Below are positions 1 through 45,644 of a DNA stretch of 64,000 bases, in pieces; the first letter of the stretch is position 1; each line of letters opens with the position of its first letter. The translations under genes and the position numbers were made by a program. The notes beneath the pieces are model-generated. The model was not told the DNA's origin. It did no database searches and saw only the letters and a list, made by a program, of their open reading frames with translations. The DNA is from Camelus dromedarius (taxonomy: Eukaryota): assembly GCF_036321535.1 (NCBI RefSeq), contig NC_087436.1, forward strand, positions 36,334,001-36,398,000, read 5' to 3'.

Positions 1-1770
1 CACCTTCAAATATACTAGATTTTTAAACAATTCAGTAAGTTAAGAGGTTTTTAGGATACCTGGGCTCTTTGTTTAGAAAAAGGAAAGGTAGTTCCATTAT
101 TCACTCAACAAATATTTGTTAAGTTACAAAGTTAAAGAGTCTCTGTCCCTCTTCTCCATTGCTTTAAAATTTAAAACTTAGTCTAGTGCAGGAGAAATGA
201 AGTAAATTAAAAAAAATCACACTTTAGTATCTTCCTATTCTCTCACCTAACACTAACACTCCATCACCAGCTCCACCAATTTTTGATACCCTCAACACCA
301 CAATGACCACCACCACCACAAAGCAATCTTAAAGTGACCTGCTGTATCTGCCCTGCAGGAAGGTCTACAAGAATGAGAGAAATCTTGATTCATTGCTTCT
401 CAAAGTTTCTGCAAAATCTATACAATATCGCCCTGACTTATACTAACCAAGTTAGGAGGGTATGTTATAGGTAGCATTTGGGAAAGACAGTGGACAAATA
501 TACCAGAATACTTGTGCTCAGGTTCTGCTCTCATTTACAAATGCACTCTGTCACACACACACACTCACCTAAAAGTAACTGAGAGGCAGAATTTGCATTT
601 GATTTTATTTTTAGACAGAGAATGCATGAGGATGCATGATAGCTATGGCTGAGTCTAACACACATGACCACCAGAGTGCTGACATAATAACAAAAAAGAA
701 TCCATGAGTTTTATTCACACACATAGATAATGGCCAAGGAATCAGAGTGATGGGATGTTGGAATCGAAGGGTCTCAGAAGTCACTAGTCCCAATCTCTCA
801 ATTAGGTAAGAAAACTTAGGTCTTTGTGCTGGGAAAATTTTGAAAGACGTTTAAAGAGGAAAAAAAAAAAAATCGCTGGGTGCCCTATTTAGCACACCCT
901 TCCAGGCTGTCTGGTTCTGTAGGGGTCTGAGACCAGTCTATGAGCTGTTTTATAACTCAGTAAGTCTTAGAAAACTTACAGTAATGCAAATGATTCTTGT
1001 CCATAGAAACGCAAATTAATATTTTCCCGCAGAATACAACAGATTATGGCCCTGTGGATACTGACCCGTCTTATGTCTGTTTGCAAATTCAGTTCAGCAT
1101 TCCTAATGACCCATATACTGGATGTATTATCTTACTGGTTCCCTCATTAATGAACGTTAATAAAATCCCACCTCCCATGTTAGTTCCCCATTTAGCACAT
1201 CAAGGGACAGACTCGGCCAGACAGACCCTAGAGATTTAGTTTCTGGAGGTCTAGACATGAAGGGGAAGGCAGCAGGCTTGCTCCTTCTCTCCCCAGACGA
1301 CGGTGGGGAAAGAAAGGAGGCAGAGGCAACGGCCAGGCAACGGTCAGACGCGGGGCCCACTGCCGGTTACAGACAAATAAACAAATAAATAAAGATCTGG
1401 GTCTGTTTTAAGTGTGGTTTCCTGAACCCAGCCCAGGCCTACTGAATCAGTCTGTAAAGGTGAGCCTCATGCACACTCAGGTTTGCAAATGACTGTTCCA
1501 GACTCACAAAATACTTTGAGACTATTTAACAGGGAGGGGCTACATGAATTAAATGAGGCAAGGAGAAAAAGCCCTATGACTCTGATCTAGTTCAAATTTT
1601 CACAGCGAACATCCCATACATAACTATACCCTAGGTCTTCGGTGTTACGGCTTCAAATGTGGGTATAGTTTTGGCAGGATTATCTTCTATTTCATTTCCA
1701 GAAACTACCAGAGAGTGTTTTTATATGGTTCTCCAAGCCCTGTAAAGTTTTTACCTTTGATGCTGTTTCT

Positions 1771-1905
1771 TTTTGTTTTTCCCTTAGGTGGGGGAGGGTG
1801 TGTGTGTTAGGTTTATTTACTTATTTATTTTAATGGAGGCACTGGGGATTAAACTCAGCACCTGGTGTGCTAAGCATGTGCTGTACCACTGAGCTATACC
1901 CCCCC
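1771..1905 (-). mobile_element. tRNA-derived SINE, camelid Vic-1-like
   Basis: Minus strand reads GGGGGGGTATAGCTCAGTGGTACAGCACATGCTTAGCA...GAGTTTAATCCCCAGTGCCTCCATTAAAATAAATAAG, giving A-box and B-box-like motifs and an A-rich tail. Degenerate flanking duplication tgctgtttct/cactatttct. Confidence 0.85.
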
Positions 1906-2618
1906 AACACTATTTCTAATGGTAGCTGCAGGACGCCCCACCAGCCCCTGCTTCAGTAGGGAAGAATTAAAGTCAGGATCCTTCTCTACTGGGAATCTGT
2001 TCATTTTTATGATTAACAAAGAAAAATTGTTATTCTTTGAGTTTTTTTTTTTGTTTGTTTGTTTGTTTCTTTAATGATTCAGAACTTAAACACAGAACAC
2101 TAGTTCTAAGAGAGGAGAGGCCCCAAATTCATCTACCCTGTAGAAGCCAAACAAACTCTTCTATAACAGAAAATATATTATCCTTACAGAAACGTGCAGG
2201 GAGGCAAACTGTGCCAGGGCTCAGGGCCACCCCGAGCACTGGGGGCCTAACAGACCCATAGCGCAGAGCACGTTGAATGAGCCTCCAGTATTAACGGGTC
2301 TAAAAACATCAGCGTAACTAAGTTGATTAGATTACAGGAGACTTGGTCATCAGCGTGATTCAAAACGTTCCTGCCTCTCATGTCTGAGTATGTGCATCTA
2401 GACTAGTTCAAATATTGAGAAACCAAAATAGATTCTATACAGTGTTAAAAACAAAACAAAACAAAACAAAACAAAACCTTAACCGTCTCATGAAGGGAAA
2501 GGAGGAACTGTTGAAAAGTACTGAAATACAGCTTCTACAAAACTGCGTTTGTGCTTAAGGCAACCCGGGTGCTTCCACTACGTCCTACTTAGCAATAACT
2601 GAATTTTATATGTGCCTG

Positions 2619-3263
2619 TGTTAGAGCAGACAGATAGCTAGATATGAGCAGAGAAAGGGGGACACAGACCAAATGGCAGGAATTGGGCAGAAAGGAGGGG
2701 CACAGGCCAAATGCAGGAAACCACACATCATGTAAGCAGCAGGGATCCCTGGGCAGAGAAAGAAAAGCTGGAATCTTTGGGCTGATACGGGGCCACACCT
2801 TTTGGCCTGGAGACCAACAAAGAAAGGTCAGAAAAGGCAGAAATTTCCAGTGTCCAAATGTAACCTTTTGCTCATTATGCCCTCATTTCAATAAAATTAG
2901 CCTTGCAGATCAGAAGTACCCATCATGCACCGACACCATGACACTTCCGATCCAGACTAAATAAGGACAAAAATCCCTCCTCCCTTCGAGAAGGTGGAGT
3001 TGGGATGATAATCAGGGAATACGACCCCAAACCCTTCCCTCCCCAGTGAATATTCTGCCCATTCATTTTTACACCCTATGTAGCTAACTTGCTAAAGAAA
3101 CTCAGGGCAGCTGCTCACCTGAGCCTGCCCGCTCTCCCCTGAGAGTGTACTATCCATCCTTTAATAAGTCCTCACTTTACCTTTTTGACCTCTAAGTCTT
3201 GTCTCTGAATTCTTTCTGGGATGAGACAAGAACCTGGAACACCGGTTGCATCTGTCGGCGACA
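2619..3263 (+). mobile_element. Solo LTR, ERV1 class (5' end resembles MER50/MER84-type LTRs)
   Basis: Starts TGTTAGAG, ends GGCGACA; 4-bp TSD cctg at 2615-2618 and 3264-3267. AATAAG poly(A)-like signal followed by the GAATTCTTTC...CAAGAACC motif typical of ERV1 LTR R/U5. Confidence 0.85.
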
Positions 3264-3629
3264 CCTGGTGCTTTTCACTGAAGGGGCTGAAAAGAAAAAT
3301 AAGTCATGGCCCTCAAGGAGCCTTCACTTTAGTTTAACAGTAATATTGCCAAGCTTGTGGAACTATAGAACACACTCTTCCCAGTAGCATCAGATGTTAA
3401 AATTCCACAAATAAAATACACCGTTGTTCTGGTTAAAGCAACATTTAAAGCTACATGTATTGAAGGACTGAGGTTAAGTCTCAACACTGTAAATTGAGCA
3501 CCTCTTAGATTTCATGGTACAAGACTGACTTTTAGCTGTAGCTCATGATAAAGTCCTCCAATGACTCCTCTTGAGTGAACCAAACTTGACCCAAGAATAG
3601 ACTCTAGACAGTGAAAGCACTTTTTTCTT

Positions 3630-4114
3630 TTGAGTGAAGGTAGATTTATTCAGAGAGATACATTGAAAGGCAAGAGAAAGGCCACGAGGTGTGGGGGTTG
3701 GGTGCTCAGATTAGAAGTAAGTACACATTCCATAGACAGAATTTGGGCCATCTCCGAAGGGAGAGGGGTGGCCGAGAGGCATCGTGTTGCTGGTTTTTAT
3801 GGGCTTGGTGGTTTCATATGCTAATAAGTGGAAGGACCAGTCTAAGGGGAAGCGGCTGGGGTTCCCAGGAAGTTGGCCTTTTCCCACTCTTAGACCTTCT
3901 GTGGCTAGCCTTGGGACTGCCATGGTGCCTGTGGGCATGTTATTCACCATGTTAATACTACAATGGGCATATAATGAAGCTCAGGATCTACTAGAAGTTA
4001 TATCTCTCATCATCCTGAGCCTCAAGGCCTACTGGGGGTTGAATCTTCCACCACTTTGATGTTAATTGCTGTGGCACTCCTTGAGTGGCTGTGCCCTGCC
4101 CTCTTCCTGTCTCA
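3630..4114 (-). promoter_or_regulatory. 3' LTR portion U3-R of the ERV retrocopy (MER41-like)
   Basis: Begins TGAGACAGG directly after the polypurine tract. TATA-like CATAAAAA (3801-3794), octamer-like ATGCTAAT (3818-3825, + strand), AATAAA (3650-3645); ends at CTCAA about 14 nt after AATAAA. Confidence 0.88.
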
Positions 4115-4124
4115 CTCCCCCCTC
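4115..4124 (-). other. Polypurine tract (PPT)
   Basis: GAGGGGGGAG immediately 5' of the LTR-initial TG on the minus strand. Confidence 0.85.
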
Positions 4125-4183
4125 AGAGATTTTACTCCCATAATCTTATGGGGTTGCAGGGGGGGCGAAGGTCCGTCATCTGA

Positions 4184-4470
4184 AACTGCTTCCAGGCTGA
4201 GTAGGGGCGTTGACCCTGCCTATCAGGGAGTAAAACTCTCTGAATGCCTAATCTAGGGGCCCCAGGGGTAGGACAGTCTTTTGTTTTTGCATGCAAGGGC
4301 TGAGGGTGTGGGCTGGAATCCTCACATAGCCATCATCTAATGTGGGGCTGCTGTAACCCACTGTTTTCATTGACTTTTGATGAATTTTCTTAAAGATGAA
4401 GCACCTTTGTACCAGCAGTCTGACAGTCTGTAATGACAAAAAGACTTAAAAGGCATGGTTAAACATTTGT
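4184..4470 (-). pseudogene. env: env remnant: only the extreme TM C-terminus
   Basis: PCLLSLFV (TM membrane-proximal GPC-like), GPLD (4262-4251) and CGCCCCTACTCAGCCTGGAAGCAGTT, which resembles the end of HERV-W-type env. Only about 370 nt separate the pol stop from the PPT. Confidence 0.6.
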
Positions 4471-4488
4471 AATCACCACTACACGGTA

Positions 4489-5865
4489 TCATTTGTTTTT
4501 CATAAACAGGTACCTGAGGTCTAATATTGCCTCGCAAGTTGTAGGTCTCTCCTGGCTCCTGTTGGGGCTTATAAATTACAGGTTTTATTCTGGACAGATG
4601 TACCCAACTAGCAATTCCCTGTAGCTTAACGGCAGTTGGGGTGCTCAGTAGTACCTGACATGGTCCCTTCCATTTTGGCTGCAGCTGGTCTTCAGGGGAT
4701 CCCTCCTTCCAAGTTTTTAGTAAGACAAAGTCCCCTGATTGGACAGGGACTTCAGCCTTTTCCTCTGTGGGAAAGGGCAACATTTTGTTTCCATATTCTT
4801 GGAGAGCCTTTTGAACTTGACTTAAGCTAACAGTGTGGGAAACTAATCTATGAGTCTCCTCATCAAACCGGAAATCTGAAGTTAAAAAGGGTCTCTCATA
4901 CATCATTTTAAATGGGCTAAGTTTTAAAATTCCCTTAGAGGCCGTCCTTATTCTTAGAAGGGCTATCGACAGGAGGGGGACCCAGGTTTCTGAAGTCTCC
5001 TGACGTAGCTTAGCAAGTGTTCTCTTTAGAACATGATTTGCTTTTTCCACCTTGCCTGAGGATTCGGGCCTCCAGAAAGAGTGGAGGCAATAGTTAATAC
5101 CCAGAGAGCAGGAAACCTGTTAAATCACCTTGGCAGTGAAGGAGGGTCCATTATCACTCTGTAAGCTTTTTGGTAGCCCAAATCTTGGGATTATTTCTTT
5201 CAGCAGAAATTTTGACACTTCTATTGCTTTTTCCATTCTGGTGGGGAACGCTTCTACCCATCCTGTAAAGGCGTCTATGAATACCAACAGGTATTTCCAT
5301 CCCTTACAAGGAGGCATCTGAGTAAAGTCTATTTGCCAATCTTCCCCTTTATAAGTTCCCCGATGTTATGTGGGCCAGAGTAGAGGTGGAGGGATAGGGT
5401 AACTCCCTGGGTCATTGCGGGCACAAAGTTCACATGCCCTAGTGACTTCCTCAACCGTTTGGGACAGCCCCTTGCCTAGGAACACTTGAGAGATTAGTCT
5501 GAGCATGGAGTCCCGCCCTAGGTGGGTGGGCTCATGGAGATGCTTAATTATTTCCCATTGTTTGTCCCCAGGAATGGGGAGCTTATTATCTTTTGTCAGC
5601 CACCCCTAGAGATTCTTCTCTAGCCCCCTATGTTTAGCCCATCAGCCCGCTTCAGGTGTAGAGGACGGCGCTGTTGGGAGAGGCTGGTCCTCAGGTAGGA
5701 GAACTGCAGCTTGTAAGGCCGGCTGTTCTCTGGCTGCAGCTTTGGCAGCCTTGTCTGCGAGGGCATCCCCCTGTACAAGGGAAGACTCGCCCTTTTGGTG
5801 ACCCCTGCAGTGCATGACTGCAACCTATTCTGGAAGCTGGACTGCTTCTAGGAAGTTTAGAATTT
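4489..5865 (-). pseudogene. pol: pol remnant: RNase H C-terminus plus integrase, no RT
   Basis: ILNFLEAVQLPE*VAVMHCRGHQKG...ALADKAAKAAA (RNase H); HLHEPTHLG...CELC (HHCC); WQIDFTQM, LQSDNGPSF, SGKVEKAN (DDE); LQPKWKGPCQVLL (GPY/F-like). Several stops and a frameshift. Confidence 0.93.
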
Positions 5866-6184
5866 TTGCCTGGAGTTTACTGAGTAAATCCCTTCCCAAC
5901 AAGGGGATGGGGCACTCAGGCATGAGCAAAAACTGATGGCAAAGGTAAAATTTTTTAGCAGGCAGCTAAGGGGGGCTGTAAATCGCTTGGTTTGGGGCTT
6001 TCTGTCAATCCCTGTTACTACACAGGATTGGGAGGACAAGGGTCCAGGGAAATCAGTCAGCAGAGTAGGCGGCTCCTGTATCTAATAAGAAAACTTTTCT
6101 ATCTGCCATGTCAAGGGTTATCTGAGACTCCTCCAGAGAAAGGACCAGGTATCCTGTGGGAGCCATGGAGGGTCCCGGGCCCCG
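5866..6184 (-). pseudogene. pro: Retroviral aspartic protease (frameshifted)
   Basis: FLLDTGAAYS active-site motif, VVTGID flap region, FLLMPECPIPLLGRDLLSKLQ C-terminal motif. Confidence 0.92.
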
Positions 6185-7714
6185 TTGGTCTTCAGTTACC
6201 TCAGCCATCATTGGTTTGGGAGTCCCAAGCCCCCCTCGGGACTGGGGGCAGTCCCGCTTCCAGTGGCCTTTTTGTTTGCATATCGGGCGGGGTTCCCATG
6301 GACCTTTTTCAAACATAGGGCATTTGTTCTTCCAGTGGCCCTCCTGGCCGCACTTAAAACAGGTCCCATTTTGGCAAGACAGTGGCTCTGACTCAGGCAA
6401 CCTGGATCCTGTCCTCGCCATGGGTCTTCTTGAAGGAGGGTAACCCTGAGGTGGCGCAGGGTTTAGGGCAGCCGCTAGGAATTGTGCCTTTTGCTGTTGT
6501 CCCTGGATCCTTCTTGCCTCTTCAACCCTGTCTCTATTGTTAAATACCCCAAACACCAGATCCACAAGCTGATTCATGGGGGTCTGGGGTCCCAGAGCTG
6601 CCTTTTGTAATTTTCTCCTGATGTCTGGGGCCAACTGAGTGATAAAATGGGTATTTACCAGGACTTCCCCCTCAGTGGTTTCGGGGTTAATATTAGTATA
6701 CTTTTTAAAGGCCTCCACTAAGTGGCCCTGGAAAAGGGCTGGATTCTCTTTTCCCCGTGTTACTTCCCTGACTTTGTCATAGTTGATGGGCTTAACAACA
6801 CATTTTTTTCATCCCCTCTATGAGGCAAGTTACCATATGGTTTCTGCATTCAAGCTCTCTACCTCCCTATTGGTAGTTCCAGTGGGGGTCTTGGTCAGGG
6901 ACTGCATCCCCCCCTAGTAAGGTAGATTATGTGTCCATGGTTGCCAGTCCATCAGCATATGCCCGGGCTGCACCGAGGATCTGGCTTTTTTCCTCAAAAG
7001 TGCAGCAGGTTGAAAGGAGGACCTGTAAGTCCCTCCAGGTAAGCTCATAGGCCATTTTAGCCTGACAAATTCCTCCATGAACCTACTGGGGTCCTCGAAG
7101 AAATGTCCAAATTTCTCCTTACAAGTAGCTAAATCAGCCATAGGAAAGGAGACATGAACTCTGATTGTTCCCCCATCACCGGCTGGCACTTCCCTTAAGG
7201 GGCAGAGTTTGGCAGTAGGAGGTTGGTAGGTGGCCCCACCTGGAGCAGGACTTTCCTCCAGTGAGGGAGATGACGGGGAAGACTGTTCCCCTTCAGAGTT
7301 GGGGGAAATAGGAACTTCTGGCTGTGGACCTTGGGGAGCTGGACTCATAAGGGGGTCATCTAGAATACTGAGCTCCTGTGGGAGGAGATGCTTAGAGGGG
7401 ATGCGGGCCAGGAATATCCGGCAGGAGTTCCTTAGACCTGGGTTTTGGTATAGGGTCAGGAACATTTGGACATATGGGATTTCCCCCCATTTACCTCCTC
7501 TTTTACAAAATAGGCCTAGCTGTAAGATGGTATTGTAATTTAATGATCCATTCTTTGGCCAGACCTCTTGGTCTCCTACTTTGCATCAGGGCCATGCAGT
7601 ATTACAAAGGAAAATTAATTTCTTTTTCTTTAAACTATCCTTTTAAAACTTTTTCCAGTTAATTAATATGCATCCTACTGGGGGGTCCTTTGGGATACTT
7701 GTAGTTGTCCCCAT
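6185..7714 (-). pseudogene. gag: gag (MA-CA-NC), HERV-W/ERV9-related, with stops and frameshifts
   Basis: ATG at 7714: MGTTTSIPKDPPVGCILINW...LIFLCNTAWP...WPKNGSLNYNTILQLGLFCKRGGKWGEIPYVQ. MHR-like ENPALFQGHLVEAFKKYT; FITQLAPDIRRKLQK; zinc knuckles CFKCGQEGHWKNKC and RPICKQKGHWKRDC. Confidence 0.95.
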
Positions 7715-8018
7715 TTTGGTTAGGATGTCCTATCTGTGAGCCTGAGGTGGCTCCCTTGGACTAGTTAAGGAAAGGAACAAAGGCCAGAGGGAGAAAAGGT
7801 GACTAGAGTCCCAGAGTCTAAATCCTTTAGAGGGAAGGAGGAGACTTAGGTCCTGAGTCAACTAAGCAAATTACGTTTTGTGAAAGAGAAACAAATAGCA
7901 TCGAAAGGTGGAAATCTAGAACAAAAAAGGAATGCTATAGCCACAATGCCTCTTAGACCAGAGATCCGAAGGTCCATTAAGGGAGTATCTGCCTGTGGCT
8001 CCCACTCAGGGGCACCAT

Positions 8019-8245
8019 AACCTGTGACTTGTGGAGAGCACTCGCCAGCAACTCTCACTCAGGGGTGCTTAAACCCATGACCCCACCAAAGGGTGCTAAA
8101 ACCTGCGACCCCATGAAGGGGTGAGAAAACCTGCAACCCCACCGAGGGGTGCAAAAACCTGCGACCCCACCGAGGGGTGCGAAAACCTGTGACCCGTGAA
8201 CAGAGCACTCGCCGGTAACTCTCGTTCAGGGGTGCAAAACCCACG
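8019..8245. repeat. 28-bp tandem repeat array in the ERV 5' leader, bracketed by two copies of a ~48-bp unit
   Basis: Units AGGGGTGC(A/G)AAAACCTGCGACCCCACCG start at 8061, 8089, 8117, 8145, 8173 (partial at 8228). AACCTGTGAC...GAGCACTCGCC...ACTCTC..TCAGGGG occurs at 8019-8065 and 8184-8232. Confidence 0.9.
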
Positions 8246-8787
8246 ATCTGCAAAGGGAGTGCCTGCCCTGACTCCTGTCTACGGATGCAATGAGGCTCTA
8301 TGCCCCTAGGGCATTTGGGGAGGGCCGGGCCACAAATTTTTAAAGGGAAACTCCTGGAATCCCCTAATTTGGGCTCCCTTTTGCAGTTCCGGCATCCTGG
8401 AACCAGACCAGTGCCCTGTAGAGAGGTGGAATTGGGCACAAAGAGCCATGGAGGGAAAGCTCACCCAATCAGGTTGCCAATTACTTGCCACGTGGTCTTA
8501 ATGTCCGAGTGGTCACCTTCGTGGATCTTCTTGAGTCCGAAGAGATAGATCGCTAGAGGAGAGAATGAGAAAAGATTGAGGGGAGAAAACTTGGGCTCGG
8601 TGGGCTCCTTCACGGCTGGTGAGCTGGTCTCTGCCAGATCCTACAGGCAGCGTCAGCCGCCACCTAAGGGCTACTTGAATCTGCAAGGCGTGAGAGAAAC
8701 CCCCTGCCACCCTCCGAAGAGAAGGGAGCCATAACCCAATAGGCGGATCGAGATTATGCCCTCTGAGCCCTGCTTCTTTATGTAAAT

Positions 8788-8807
8788 GCCCCACACGTTG
8801 GGCGCCA
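8788..8807 (-). other. Primer-binding site, tRNA-Lys1,2 type
   Basis: TGGCGCCCAACGTG(TG)GGGC versus canonical Lys1,2 PBS TGGCGCCCAACGTGGGGC; lies 6 nt after the U5 terminal CA (8814). Confidence 0.85.
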
Positions 8808-8813
8808 GAGATA

Positions 8814-9087
8814 TGATGCAGGAAAACAGATGTGGGGCATGAGGAGGGCTGTGTCCCAGGTCTCGGTTGAGCCCCTGGGATGTGCCCTGCCAAGTGTTGG
8901 TCCTTGGCTACATGCAGGAAAGAATTCAACAGCCAGCCACAGTTGAGTGAAGGTAGATTTATTCAGAGAGATACATTGAAAGGCAAGAGAAAGTCCACGA
9001 GGTGTGGGGGTTGGGTGCTCAGATTAGAAGTAGGTACACATTCCATAGACAGAATGCGGACCATCTCCAAAGGGAGAGGGGCAGCCA
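8814..9087 (-). mobile_element. 5' LTR portion R-U5 of the ERV retrocopy
   Basis: R is 9087-8943 (matches 3774-3630). U5 is 8942-8814, ending ...TTCCTGCATCA. No U3 upstream; the TSD follows directly. Confidence 0.9.
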
Positions 9088-9618
9088 AAAGCACTTTTTA
9101 TAGAAACGAATGAATATAAGACCAATATAAGCTCTTGATGTCAGAGTTAGCAGAATTCAGTATATACATCCCCTACAATGTCTGTCGATGTCTTAATCAC
9201 TTAAGCAATGACTTAACATAGGCTTTGGAAGCATAACCCCCAACCCCTCTTTGCTCCTAGGGTTCAAGTGGCATATTGCTGTTCTGAAAGACCTCTCTGA
9301 ACAAAGTACAGAGTTAAATATTGATCAGAACAAAGCTGAGGGAAATGGAGATCTTAGTTGTTCAAATGGCAGCAAAGCTAGCCAAGTTGTATTGTTACAG
9401 AAGTCTGCCAGATTTATACTGGGGGCCTCCATTGTGTAATAATACAATGGAAATCAAGTCTCCTTGAAATGTGTTAATAAAAAAAGGAAACACTGGGGAA
9501 CAGAGGATTAAACAAAATTCAAAATATTGTTTTGCTGCAGGTCTTTTAAAAGTCTTTATATGCCAATATCTTCTAGAAGTGCAAGAGGTAAGATATTCTC
9601 CAGATATATTTGACTACG

Positions 9619-10080
9619 GTATCAGTTAAGATTAAATTCATCTAAGAGTGACAGAAAAAATATAAAATGTCAGTGTCTTAATGTCTTAAACTAGATAAGT
9701 GTTTATTTATTTCTTAAGTAAAATTCCAGAGATAGTCCAGAGATGCTTTGGCTCTTTAGGGTATCATGACTTAGGCTTCCATTGTTAAGACCACCTTATG
9801 GTCCCACATGGCTGCTCCAGCTCCAATCCATACATCCATATTCCATCTAGCAGGAAAGAGAAATGGAAAAGAGAAGAGAAACCCTTCTCTCTTTACAGAC
9901 ACTTCCTAGAGGTTGCAACGTGACTTTAGATTACATCCTACTGATTAGAACTTCATTCCATGACCACACCTACCTGAAAAAGAGGACTAAAAATGTAGTC
10001 TTTATTCTATGTAGCCATGTGTCTGGTTAAAAATTCTATTCTTATAGAAGAGAAGGGGACCATGAACAGTCTCTGCCACA
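9619..10080 (-). mobile_element. MaLR (MLT1-type) solo LTR, old
   Basis: ATGGCTGCTCCAGCTCCA, CATGACCACACCTA and terminal AGTCTCTGCCACA resemble MLT1 in reverse orientation. Confidence 0.65.
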
Positions 10081-10134
10081 GTCATGAAACTCTTTCATGG
10101 AGCACTTCACAAAATAAAGGTGTGGAAATGTTGA

Positions 10135-10830
10135 TGTAAATTGATTACTCTTCATAGTATTTTCTTAACTGCTAACAGTCAATGTCCAAGGCAATCCCCT
10201 GGAAGAGCCTGAGAACCAGGACTGGCAAGCTAATTTACCAAGGCATTCTTACAGGAACCAGAAGCATGAAAGGAAGAATTAATGTTATTTCATTTGCATC
10301 TAGCAATTGCAATAATTCACTTGAAAGCATTCCTCAAGCACTGAGAAGCCATCTCTTTGAAATGTAATTGCCAAGAAAGAAAGAACCCTTACCTCCCAGC
10401 TTCTATAAGGAAATGGGAGCCTAATTAGAGTAGACACCTTGCTCCAAATTACAAAATGACCTCTTTTCATACAGATGATGAGATCTCTGTTTTTCCTTTG
10501 GATAAACCCAATTAGTTAATGCAGATGGTCGCCCCAATTACCAGATGTATTTAGGATGAACTTTGTATGATAAATGGTGCTGTCAAGTCCTCTTATTTGA
10601 GGACTAGTTACTGTTTATCTTGAGAACATGTATGGAATGGGTTGTATCTGCTTGGCTATGTAAAAGGGGGAGATTTCCTTCTATTTTTTTGCATCTCTCA
10701 GTGACACACATCACATTCTGGTTTAATGCTTACTCAGTAATAAGCATTAAATTGTTCTCTTTCTCCTCTAACTTTGTGGAGAATTTTTCTTGGTTGGCAG
10801 AAGATTTTTAAAGTTTATATTTTCATAACA
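10135..10830 (+). mobile_element. MER34-like ERV1 solo LTR
   Basis: AAATGGTGCTGTCAAGTCCTCTTATTTGAGGACTAGTTACTGTTTATCTTGAGAACATGTATG...CATCACATTCTGGTTTAATGCTTA, ending TAACA at 10830. 5' boundary approximate. Confidence 0.75.
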
Positions 10831-11364
10831 CTGTCCTCAAACTCATTTATATCATATTACTTAGTATATTCTCTGTTACAAGTAACAGACTGTTGTAATT
10901 TGATACTGAACTGCCTAATTGGAGCTTTTTCTTGGTGTGGCTCAAAGAAAGATTCAATTAAAGGGCTCCACACTCAGGCAAAATGGTCAGAGCTGAATCA
11001 AAATTGATCAGGAAAGAACAAAATAGATGAAGGAAAGAGAAGGTCCAGAAAAAAGTGGGGTAGACAAATAGGGCAAGAAAAATCCTTTAAATAGAAAAGT
11101 ATATATTTAACATATTCAGCAATTTGTTAGAACAAAATATCCTTCTGATAGGAAAACTAAACTCAAATAAAAATGGAAAACAGAAAAGTACCATGACCAA
11201 ATCCCATATAAAGATTGGTGTTTTCAATAAAAAGTTCTACTTGAGAATTTTCACCTCTTGTGAGAGTGAATCAAATTGTCATTTTTGCCATCTTAAAATT
11301 TCATGAGGAGGAAAAATTCAAAATCTGGATAAATTACTTTTAATGTTAACATAATAAAGAATAT

Positions 11365-14160
11365 AAAGAGAAAGGGCAAACTTTTAGCTAGACTAATGAA
11401 GAAAAAAAGAGGAAAAACAAATAAAATCATAAATGAAGGAGGAGACATTACAAATGATATTACAGAAATGCACAGGATCATGAGAGACTATTGTGAGTGA
11501 CTATAGACCAACAAACTGGATAAGCTAGAAGAAATGGATAAATTCCTAGAAACATACAACCCACCAAGACTGAATCTGGAAGAAATAGAAACTCTTAACA
11601 GACCAATAATGAATGAGATTGAATCAATAATCAGAAACATTCCAACAAAGAAAAGCCCAAGACTACATGGCTTCAATAGTGAATTCTGCCAAATATTTGA
11701 AGAATTAACCCAGTCCTTCTCAAACTCTTCCAAAAAATTGAAGAGGAGGAAACACTTTCAGTCTTCATTCCATGAAGCCAGCATTACCCTGATACCAAAA
11801 TCAGATAAGGACACTACAAGAAAACTATAGAACAATAGCCCTGATAAATGCAAAAATTCTCAAAAAAATATTAGCAAACTGAGTCCTACAACACATTAAA
11901 AGGATCATATACCATAACCAAATGGAATTTATCTCTGGGATGCAAGAATGGTTCAACATAATGCAAACCAATAAATGTTATACACCACATTAATAGAATG
12001 AAAGATAAAAACATACAATCACCTCAATATATGCAGAAAAACACAATACCCTTTCATGAGAAAAACCCTCAACAAATTGGGTATAGAAGGAACATACTTC
12101 AACACAATAAAGGCCATATATGACAAATCCACAGCTAACAACATGCTCAGTGGTGAAAGACTGAAAGCTTTTCCTCTAAGATGAGACACAAGACCAGGAT
12201 GCATGTTCTCACCACTCCCATTCAAAATAGTACTGGAAGTCCTATCTAGAATAATTAGGCAAGGCATAGAAATAAAAGGCATCCAATTTGGAAAGGGAGC
12301 AGTAAAATTGTCATTATCTGTAGATGATATGATCTTATGTAGAAAATCCTAAAGACTTAACCAAAAAAAAAAAAAACAAAAAAAAAACAAAAAAACTGCT
12401 GAAATCTAATAAATAAATGCAGTAAAGTTTCAGAATACAAAATCAAAACACAGAAATCAGTTGTGTTTCTACACATTAACAATGAAGTATCTGAAAAAGA
12501 AATAAAACATTCACAATAGTATCAAAAACAATAAAATACTTAGGAGTAAGTTTAACCAAAGAAATTAAAGATCTCTACAATGAAAACAAGACTTGATGAA
12601 ATAAATTGAAGACACAAATGGAAAGATATCTCATGTTCATGGATAATAATTAATATTTTTTAAATGTCCACACTATATAAAACCATCTATAGATTCAATG
12701 CAATCCCTATTAAAAATCCAATAACATGTTTTACAGCAATAGCAAAAACAATCCTAAAACTTGTATGGAACCACAACAGACCCTGAATAGCCAAAGCAAT
12801 CCTGAGAAAGGGGAAAGAATAGTCTCTTCAATATGTGGTGTTTGGAAAATTGGATAACCACAAGCAGAAAAATTAAACTGGACCCTTATCTTACATCATT
12901 CACAAAAATTAATTTGAAATGGATTAAAGGCTTAAACATAAGAGCTGATAATGTAAAACTCCTAGAAAAAAAACATAGGGAAGAAGTTCTTTGACACTGG
13001 TTTTGGCAATGATTTTTTGGACATGATATGACACCAAAACCTCAAGCAACAAAAGCAAAAATCAACAAGTGGAACTATGTCAAACTAAAAATCTTTTGCA
13101 CTGAGAAAGAAACAATGAATAAAATGAAAAGGCAACCTATGGAATTGGAGAAAATATTTGCAAATCATATATTGGATAAGGGGTTGATGCTGAAAATATA
13201 TAAAGAACTCATATAACTTAACAGCAACAACAACAAATAAACTGATTAAAAATGGGCAGAGGAACTAAATGGACATTTTCCCAAATAAGACATACAGATG
13301 GCAAACAGACATGAAAAAATGTTCAATATCACTAATTATCAAAGAAATGCAAATCAAAACCACAATAAGATATCACCTCACACCTGTTAGAACGGCTATC
13401 ATCAAGAAGACAAGAGATAAGTGTTGGTGAGGATGTGGAGGAAAGGGAACCCTTGTGCACTGCTGATGGGAATGCAAATTGGCTTGGCCACTATGAAAAA
13501 CAGCGTGGAGTTTCCTCAAAAAAATTAGAAATACAACTAGCATATGATCCAGCCATTTCACTTCTGGGTATATATTCAAAGAAAATGAAAATAGAATGTT
13601 GAAAAGACATTGTAGCATTATTCACAATAGCCAAGATATAGAAATGACCTAAGTGTTTCTCACACAATGGAATATTATTCAGCCATGAGAAAGAAGGAAA
13701 TCCTGCCATTTATCACAACACGGATGGACTTGAGGGTATTATGCTAAGTGAAATAAGCTAAAGACAAGTATTGTATGGTATCACTTATTTGTGGAATCTA
13801 AAAAAGCAGAATTTGTAGAAACAGAATAGAATAGTGGTTACCAGGGGCTGGGGGAGGTGGGTGAACTGGGAAGATGTTGTTAAAAGGGTACAAGCTTACA
13901 ACTAGAAGATGAATAAGATCTGGAGAGCTAATGCACAGCATAGCGACCACAGTCCACTGTACTGTACTATATACTTCAACATTGCTGAGAGACTCGGCTT
14001 AAATGTTCTCACTGCAAAAAAGAAATGATAATTATGTGACTTGATAGAGGCATTAGCTTAAGCTATGGTGCTAATCATATTGCAACATATAAATGAATCA
14101 AATCAACACACTACACCATAAACTTTCAAAGTGTTATATGTAAATTGTACCTCAGTAAAA
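11365..14160 (+). mobile_element. 5'-truncated LINE-1 (ORF2 RT/C-terminal part and 3' UTR), old L1MA-like, degenerate
   Basis: MDKFLETYNPPRLNLEEIETLNRPI; RT motif remnant SLSVDDMIL near 12311-12340; MTPKPQATKAKINKWNYVKLKIFC. Internal deletion near 12810; L1MA9/10-like 3' UTR. Confidence 0.93.
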
Positions 14161-14966: not shown

Positions 14967-16351
14967 TTTTCCTATTATTATTATTATTTTTTTTAATTGA
15001 GGTATAGTCAGCCTATAATGTTGTGTCAACTTCTGGTATACAGCACAATTCTTCAGTCATACATGATTATACATATATTCATTTTCATATTCTTCTTCAC
15101 CATAAGCTACTACAAGATACTGAATATACTTCTCTGTGCTATACAGAATAAACTTGCTTATCTATTTTGTATATACCAGTCAGTATCTGCAAATCCCAAA
15201 CTCCCAGTTTATCCCTTCCCTCTCCCCTCCCCATTGGCAATCACAAGTCTGTATTCTATGTCTGTGAGTCTGTTTCTGTTTTACATATAAGTTCATTTGT
15301 CTTTTTTTCTTTTAGAGTCCACATATGAGTGATATCATATGGTATTTTTCTTTATCTTTCTGGCTTACTTCACTTAGAATGCCATTGTCGAGGGCTATCC
15401 ATGTTGCTGCAAATGGTTTTATTTTATTGTTTTTTATGGCTGAGTAGTATTCCATTGTATAAATGTACCACAGCTTCTTTATCCAGTCATATGTTGATGG
15501 ACATTTAGGTTGTTTCCATGTCTTGGCTATCGTAAATAGTGCTGCTATGAACACTGGGGTGCATGTGTCTTTTTCAATTAAGGTACCCTCTGGATATATG
15601 CCCAGGAGTGGGATTACTGGGTCATATGGTAAGTCTATTTTTAGTCTTTTGACGAATCTCCATACTGTTTTCCACAATGGCTGCACCAAAATGCATTCCT
15701 ACCAACAGTGTAGGAGAGTTCCCTTTTCTCCACAGCGTCTCCAGCATTTGTCATTTGTGGACTTTTTAATGATGGCCATTCTGACTGGTGTGAGGTGATA
15801 CCTCATCGTAGTTTTGATTTGCATTTCTCTGATAGTTAGTGATACTGAGAATTTTTTTCATGTGCCTATTGGTCACTCATATGTCTTCACTGGAGAATTG
15901 CTTGTTTAGGTCTTCTGCCCATTTTTGGATTGGGTTATTTGTTTTTTTCTTATTAAGTCATATAAGCTGTTTATATATTCTGGAAATCAAGCCCTTGACA
16001 GTTTCATCTTTTGCAAATATTTTCTCCCATTCCATAGGTTGTCAGTTTGTTTTGCTTATGGTTTCCTTTGCTGTGCAAAAACTTGTAAGTTTAATTAGAT
16101 CCCATTTGTTTATTTTTGCTATTATTTCTATTGCTTGGGTAGACTGCCTTAGGAGAACATTGCTGAGATGTATGTGAGATATTGTTTTGCCTATGTTTTC
16201 TTCTAGGAGATTTATAGTGTCTTGTCTTACATTTAAGTCATTAAGCCATTATTTTTGTATATGGTGTGAGGGAGTATTCTAACTTCATTGATTTACATGA
16301 TGCTGTCCCGTTTTCTCAACACCATTTACTGAAGAGGCTGTCTTTATTCCA
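14967..16351 (-). mobile_element. 5'-truncated younger LINE-1 with perfect TSD
   Basis: ORF2 C-terminus [24 protein letters not shown]...SLICGL* (15689-15312), 3' UTR and A-rich tail. 14-bp TSD tgtaattaaacttt at 14953-14966 and 16352-16365; TT/AAAG nick site. Confidence 0.96.
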
Positions 16352-45513: not shown

Positions 45514-45644
45514 TTCCTTTTTTTTTTTTTACAGATAGAAATGTTACTTATTTATTTATTTTTTCAATGGAGGTACTGGGGATTGAACCCAGGACCTCGT
45601 CCACGCTAAGCATAGGACTCTACCACTGAGCTATACCCTCCCCC
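45514..45644 (-). mobile_element. tRNA-derived SINE, camelid Vic-1-like
   Basis: Minus strand GGGGGAGGGTATAGCTCAGTGGTAGAGTCCTATGCTTAGCGTGGACGAGGTCCTGGGTTCAATCCCCAGTACCTCCA, with A box, B box and A-rich tail. Confidence 0.92.

Follow-up and report, generated by a model that had tools for sequence, protein, structure and literature searches.

A class I endogenous retrovirus copy in the dromedary genome whose protease reads in frame into the end of RNase H

Introduction

The closest described systems are defective endogenous retroviruses (ERVs) of human and mouse. In HERV-W, a recurrent pol deletion (nt 4513-6184, starting 318 nt into pro-pol) is reported in 28% of 213 sequences (PMC5016936), and about two thirds of the copies are L1-processed (PMC5016936, PMC5537654). 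PMC5537654 describes L1 copying as peculiar to HERV-W among human ERV groups. In mouse IAP 1Δ1, a 1.9-kb deletion produces a gag-pol fusion that is cis-acting and depends on helper proteins (PMC6466679, PMC7411935). PMC3769647 describes complementation in trans, and a camelid survey reports short, possibly non-autonomous ERV1 clusters in alpaca (PMC8605555).

Here we analyse an ERV copy in a window of 64,000 nt from Camelus dromedarius (contig NC_087436.1; the window is the whole stretch of DNA analysed, and all coordinates count from its first letter). We consider it likely that this is a dead, L1-processed copy of a class I ERV without reverse transcriptase (RT) and env, and that its deletion arose at microhomology and was inherited from a defective subfamily.

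Results

Layout of the element

The minus strand of 3614-9099 is a class I ERV, with an element proper of 5,458 nt. Its features are as follows.

9088-9099, minus strand: upstream target-site duplication of 12 nt, a 12/12 exact match to 3614-3625, with an A-rich start like an L1 endonuclease site
8943-9087, minus strand: 5' R region, where the element starts without U3; matches 3630-3774 with 9 mismatches in 145
8814-8942, minus strand: U5, ending in CA, present only at the 5' end
8788-8807, minus strand: putative primer-binding site of Lys type, directly after U5
8061-8200, minus strand: 28-nt tandem repeats (repeat spacing 28) in the leader of about 1.1 kb
6188-7714, minus strand: gag of class I type with two zinc knuckles, with stops and frameshifts (Gag_p30 E 3e-11; zf-CCHC in two stretches)
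5861-6184, minus strand: protease with DTG motif, frameshifts near 6060 and 5938, about 20 C-terminal residues short of the XMRV protease
5861-5864, minus strand: the join, at an Ile codon conserved on the protease side and on the RNase H side (break posterior 0.47 + 0.47)
5730-5860, minus strand: C-terminal third of RNase H, one stop (XMRV RNase H in PDB, E 5e-9; weak in Pfam)
4502-5575, minus strand: integrase with zinc-binding, core and C-terminal domains, with stops and no frameshift (Integrase_H2C2, rve and MLVIN_C above Pfam cut-offs)
4134-4501, minus strand: gap of about 370 nt between integrase and polypurine tract, without env
4115-4133, minus strand: polypurine tract
3775-4114, minus strand: U3, starting TG, with a TATA-like box at 3801
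3630-3774, minus strand: 3' R, with AATAAA at 3650-3645 and no U5 after it
3614-3631, minus strand: short poly(A) remnant and downstream target-site duplication (3625-3614)

The class I (gamma-like) assignment follows from the Gag_p30 capsid, the MLV-type integrase C-terminus and a pro-pol that is colinear with gag. The cis signals (LTR parts, primer-binding site and polypurine tract) are intact, and the integrase retains its zinc ligands (HHCC) and the D-D-E positions. We take the primer-binding site to be Lys-type, presumably with a 2-nt duplication relative to such a site. Searches with five env-bearing proteins gave no match between integrase and polypurine tract, and Rfam gave nothing in 1-12000. 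A 41-nt motif is repeated in the viral leader, at 7982, 8035 and 8202.

The initial annotation inferred a source with Gag, protease and integrase in one frame; this copy is not open in one such frame, since pro has two frameshifts upstream of the join (6060 and 5938), which together restore the original frame. Other contigs (see below) differ at both places, and the two frameshifts look private to this copy. The codon at the gag-pro boundary (6185-6187) is a sense codon here; a family without a gag stop was considered and rejected, most aligned contigs differing from the window at this codon.

The element starts in R at 9087, which corresponds to 27 nt downstream of the TATA-like box in the 3' U3, and ends in a short A-tail from 3631, 14 nt past AATAAA. 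It is flanked by the exact 12-nt target-site duplication, with a T/AAAAA start (rough chance 5e-4). R at the 5' end without U3, a 3' stop after R without U5, poly(A) and a duplication of 5-15 nt at a TT/AAAA-like site are the L1 hallmarks given for HERV-W processed pseudogenes in PMC5537654. Because of its R-to-poly(A) structure and target-site duplication, this copy is L1-processed and has passed through RNA, as had been proposed when L1 RT was named as its maker. The two R regions differ at 9 of 145 sites (6.2%, 95% interval 2.9-11.5%). The mammalian substitution rate is 2-2.5 per thousand per million years, which caps the age at roughly 6-29 million years.

Other repeats are seen in the window. 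Another LTR-like stretch lies on the minus strand at 2620-3260, about 350 nt downstream of the element, and L1 fragments in opposite orientations lie at 11400-13400 and 15000-16200. ARAGORN reports a tRNA-Ala(AGC) at 45568-45640 (minus strand), which is more likely a tRNA-derived SINE than a tRNA gene, since an A-rich tail follows; a similar decayed copy is found near 1800-1910, and we take both tRNA-Ala-like SINEs to resemble a camelid SINE.

The protease-RNase H join

From the C-terminal protease motif, the minus-strand frame runs through QAKI-LNFLEAV and a stop (5827-5825) to the RNase H motif HCxxHQ with no frame change, and then on into integrase in the same frame, with five stops and no frameshifts in 480 codons. 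In the fused reading, Pfam places RVP (model positions 76-100 of 101) at residues 3-27 and, weakly (E 0.09), RNase_H (model positions 99-140 of 141) at residues 25-70, followed by the integrase models. A PDB search with 73 fused residues gave matches to residues 87-112 of the 132-residue XMRV protease chain (E 4e-6) and to XMRV RNase H (E 5e-9), and the two alignments split the fused reading into 27 residues of protease and the next 45 of RNase H. The distance between the protease and RNase H anchors is 30 aa here, as compared to 513-691 (median 663) in Pol relatives (measurable in the 38 of 120 long relatives in which both anchors matched); therefore about 633 codons (~1.9 kb) are absent, comprising the protease tail, RT, the connection and around two thirds of RNase H.

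LPQG and YxDD motifs are absent from all six frames of 3500-9300. For the RT span, tblastn with 120 Pols (relying on the 62 that have both RT and RNase H anchors) gave no match at E <0.05 within the element except two, both on gag. Frame, Pfam, PDB and anchor distance thus agree with the initial annotation, which had RT excised and protease joined in frame to the RNase H C-terminus, and its report that LPQG and YxDD are missing is confirmed. Two corrections apply: the break, which it put near 5858-5867, maps to 5864-5861, and the excised segment has to be extended beyond RT to most of RNase H.

The RNase H motifs that bear three of the four acidic residues precede HCxxHQ by a median of 111 and 52 residues, and the join sits 16 residues ahead of it. 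We take these motif positions to be the acidic catalytic residues, three of four of which went with the deletion, and the RNase H remnant would then be unable to be catalytic.

No protein that bridges the join was found in the protein searches: 65 of the 316 retrieved proteins have both anchors in order, and the shortest distance among them is 190. According to Pfam, the protein with this distance (Anolis P0177) retains a portion of RT; it and pocket-mouse P0196 (a model fused to an olfactory receptor) were set aside as convergent cases and likely gene-model artefacts. The exact junction pattern has no match in metagenome contigs, and scans for related loci gave nothing in viral contigs and, in metagenomes, a single distant locus (39%).

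Decay and possible function of the fused frame

Neutral decay at about 6% per lineage predicts 3.6 stops in the 480 codons, with which the observed five agree (p 0.30); 3% of post-insertion decay alone predicts 1.8 (p 0.037). Since the stops exceed the post-insertion expectation, the source was probably already decaying before the L1 insertion. In the XMRV chain of 132 residues the protease match stops at residue 112, and the XMRV dimer interface is made of C-terminal strands only (PMC7072860), for which reasons the join probably cuts the dimer strands and the fused protease would likely not dimerise normally. Given a protease that probably lost these strands and an RNase H piece that would not be catalytic, the fused frame probably needed no function, and its spread would likely have been passive, on borrowed enzymes.

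We think it unlikely that the fusion was instead selected, i.e. that a subfamily without RT and env held the join in frame for the sake of a read-through product (Gag, protease remnant, RNase H tail and integrase) that helped its own RNA in cis, with only RT and protease coming from a helper. Such selection would fit an in-frame join that a diverged copy has in common, an integrase that keeps HHCC and D-D-E, and the precedent of mouse IAP 1Δ1 (PMC6466679, PMC7411935). The frame from RNase H tail to integrase has no frameshifts in 1,440 nt, as compared to several in gag and pro, which could hint at past constraint. Against selection, an in-frame join is a one-in-three event, the number of stops suggests a source already in decay, the protease dimer strands are likely cut, and a pol product is made in class I viruses only by read-through of the gag stop, according to PMC4178896. 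There is, in our view, a slim chance of the fuller form of this idea: a camelid subfamily of class I ERVs that lost RT, RNase H activity and env, in which selection held integrase in frame behind gag, with its own integrase supplied in cis and RT and protease borrowed. Such a subfamily would be the gamma-like parallel to IAP 1Δ1; it would have spread as a provirus as well as via L1, and its 5' breakpoint would have converged on that of the HERV-W pol deletion.

Copies of the join in sequencing runs

Part of the element is contained in 20 of the 24 sequencing runs listed, and contigs of four runs were aligned to 5300-6500 at 80% likeness. Two genome-sized runs have 457 and 442 contigs on this interval, only 65 and 55 of which reach at least 99% likeness; because most fall below that value, the element belongs to a multi-copy family.

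Among the pieces listed (32 of 1,044), two bridge the join with at least 31 letters on each side. One of them (run X10, record 9) shows a single difference and presumably represents this locus. The other (run X1, record 4) covers the 271 nt of 5824-6094 with 34 mismatched letters and 4 gaps, i.e. it is 12.5% different, and this exceeds the 6.2% between the two R regions (Fisher p 0.044), which makes it an unlikely post-insertion duplicate. It retains 37 letters on the short side of the join and has 13 letters clipped at its other end. The join is thus probably not private to this locus, as judged from one diverged contig among the 32 of 1,044 pieces listed. No loose ends were found at 5855-5870 among those listed (24 of 208); the summed depth there is 282-298 versus about 10 for single contigs, a depth that is not a copy number.

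In each DNA run, 4-5 contigs depart at 5889 into unlike sequence. We also note a 1.46-kb contig in the RNA-library runs X10 and X17 (about 85% alike, depth ~70), which covers 5890-6390 and continues with about 950 unlike letters. With the gag end and protease followed by unlike sequence, it is possibly an expressed relative and perhaps an RT-bearing one; the RNA-run contigs were not accepted as proof of transcription. From the departures at 5889 and this contig, it follows that relatives without the join exist; they may carry RT.

We judge it very unlikely that the deletion is a private lesion, made at this locus during or after the L1 insertion, with the bridging contig a later duplicate or an alignment artefact. 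That a single diverged piece bridges the join among the pieces listed, that none of the 316 retrieved proteins spans it and that the divergence test reaches only p 0.044 would all fit such a lesion. Against it, the aligner clipped 13 letters at the contig's other end yet kept 37 across the join, and strong clusters of loose ends would be expected at the join if the relatives kept RT, none of which is seen among those listed. The join was probably inherited from a subfamily instead, a reading that draws on one diverged piece among those listed.

Break point and origin of the deletion

To map the break, residue frequencies were taken column by column from segments of 170 proteins, 72 on the protease side and 93 on the RNase H side. 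The posterior is 0.47 on each side of the Ile codon 5863-5861 and 0.04 one codon earlier. At the join column, 63 of the 72 relatives on the protease side and 81 of the 93 on the RNase H side have Ile; since it is usual on both sides, a few bases were probably common to the two ends of the removed segment, as judged from protein columns of distant relatives (~30-45% identical). This favours microhomology over a splice, and of the two origins that had been suggested, microhomology recombination fits the Ile codon shared by both sides. The other, a splice at CAG|G, is disfavoured: a break at this point has a posterior of <0.005, because the Ala that follows Gln is the protease-side residue in 66 of 72 relatives.

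It is quite improbable that a cryptic splice of any kind removed the segment as an intron from the viral RNA, with the spliced form fixed by retroposition: this copy did go through an mRNA, the Glu codon before the RNase H-side Ile (68 of 93 relatives) could supply the AG, and a shared donor could explain why the recurrent HERV-W deletion begins at nearly the same spot (PMC5016936), but for a GT donor to lie at the supported break, a Val codon is required in columns where 1 of 72 or 9 of 72 relatives have one, and the sequence upstream of the acceptor encodes Lys/Glu-rich residues and would make a poor pyrimidine tract.

Under the preferred reading, a deletion at microhomology, reverse transcriptase would have switched template by copy choice, leaving at the protease-end Ile codon and resuming at that of RNase H. 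The deleted product would have retained packaging and priming signals and gone through several rounds of copying, performed in trans by a helper virus, by L1, or by both. The present copy would come from a defective source provirus that held the in-frame 1.9-kb RT deletion, with L1 copying its full-length RNA.

Discussion

If this reading is true, the locus is a camelid example of two known phenomena, RT-deleted ERV derivatives that live on borrowed enzymes and L1 copying of ERV RNA, and the element is of an ordinary kind, already known from mice and humans. That its 5' break falls so near the start of the HERV-W deletion hints that the protease end may be prone to deletion. The case would gain weight only with a demonstration of selection on the fused integrase frame.

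As compared to the ERV-W lineage, which we take to have a Trp or Arg primer site, the element has what is presumably a Lys-type site, and the host is different. Both are class I and have two zinc knuckles, and both have copies made by L1, which carry R-U5 at one end and U3-R at the other, poly(A) and duplications of 5-15 nt; in HERV-W, env is mostly lost. The HERV-W deletion starts 318 nt into pro-pol, and the join here lies about 320 nt into pro. The deletion here is ~1.9 kb, versus 1.67 kb, and ends deeper in RNase H, and the integrase is kept, whereas 84% of HERV-W copies lose the integrase C-terminal part. Literature searches listed no description of this camelid subfamily; the repeat library of PMC8605555 may hold it.

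IAP 1Δ1 is also non-autonomous and env-less, has a 1.9-kb internal deletion with an in-frame fusion, and needs a helper in trans. It differs in being class II, in having gag fused directly to pol and in a cis effect shown by experiment, whereas the dromedary element has a whole gag, with the fusion downstream of the gag-pro boundary, and is known from sequence. Deleted HERV-H is another helper-dependent ERV derivative with little or no coding frame. VL30 and ETn (PMC6466679) likewise combine a defective internal region with intact cis signals and complementation in trans, and have little or no coding frame left, in contrast to the dromedary element, which keeps recognisable gag, pro and integrase.
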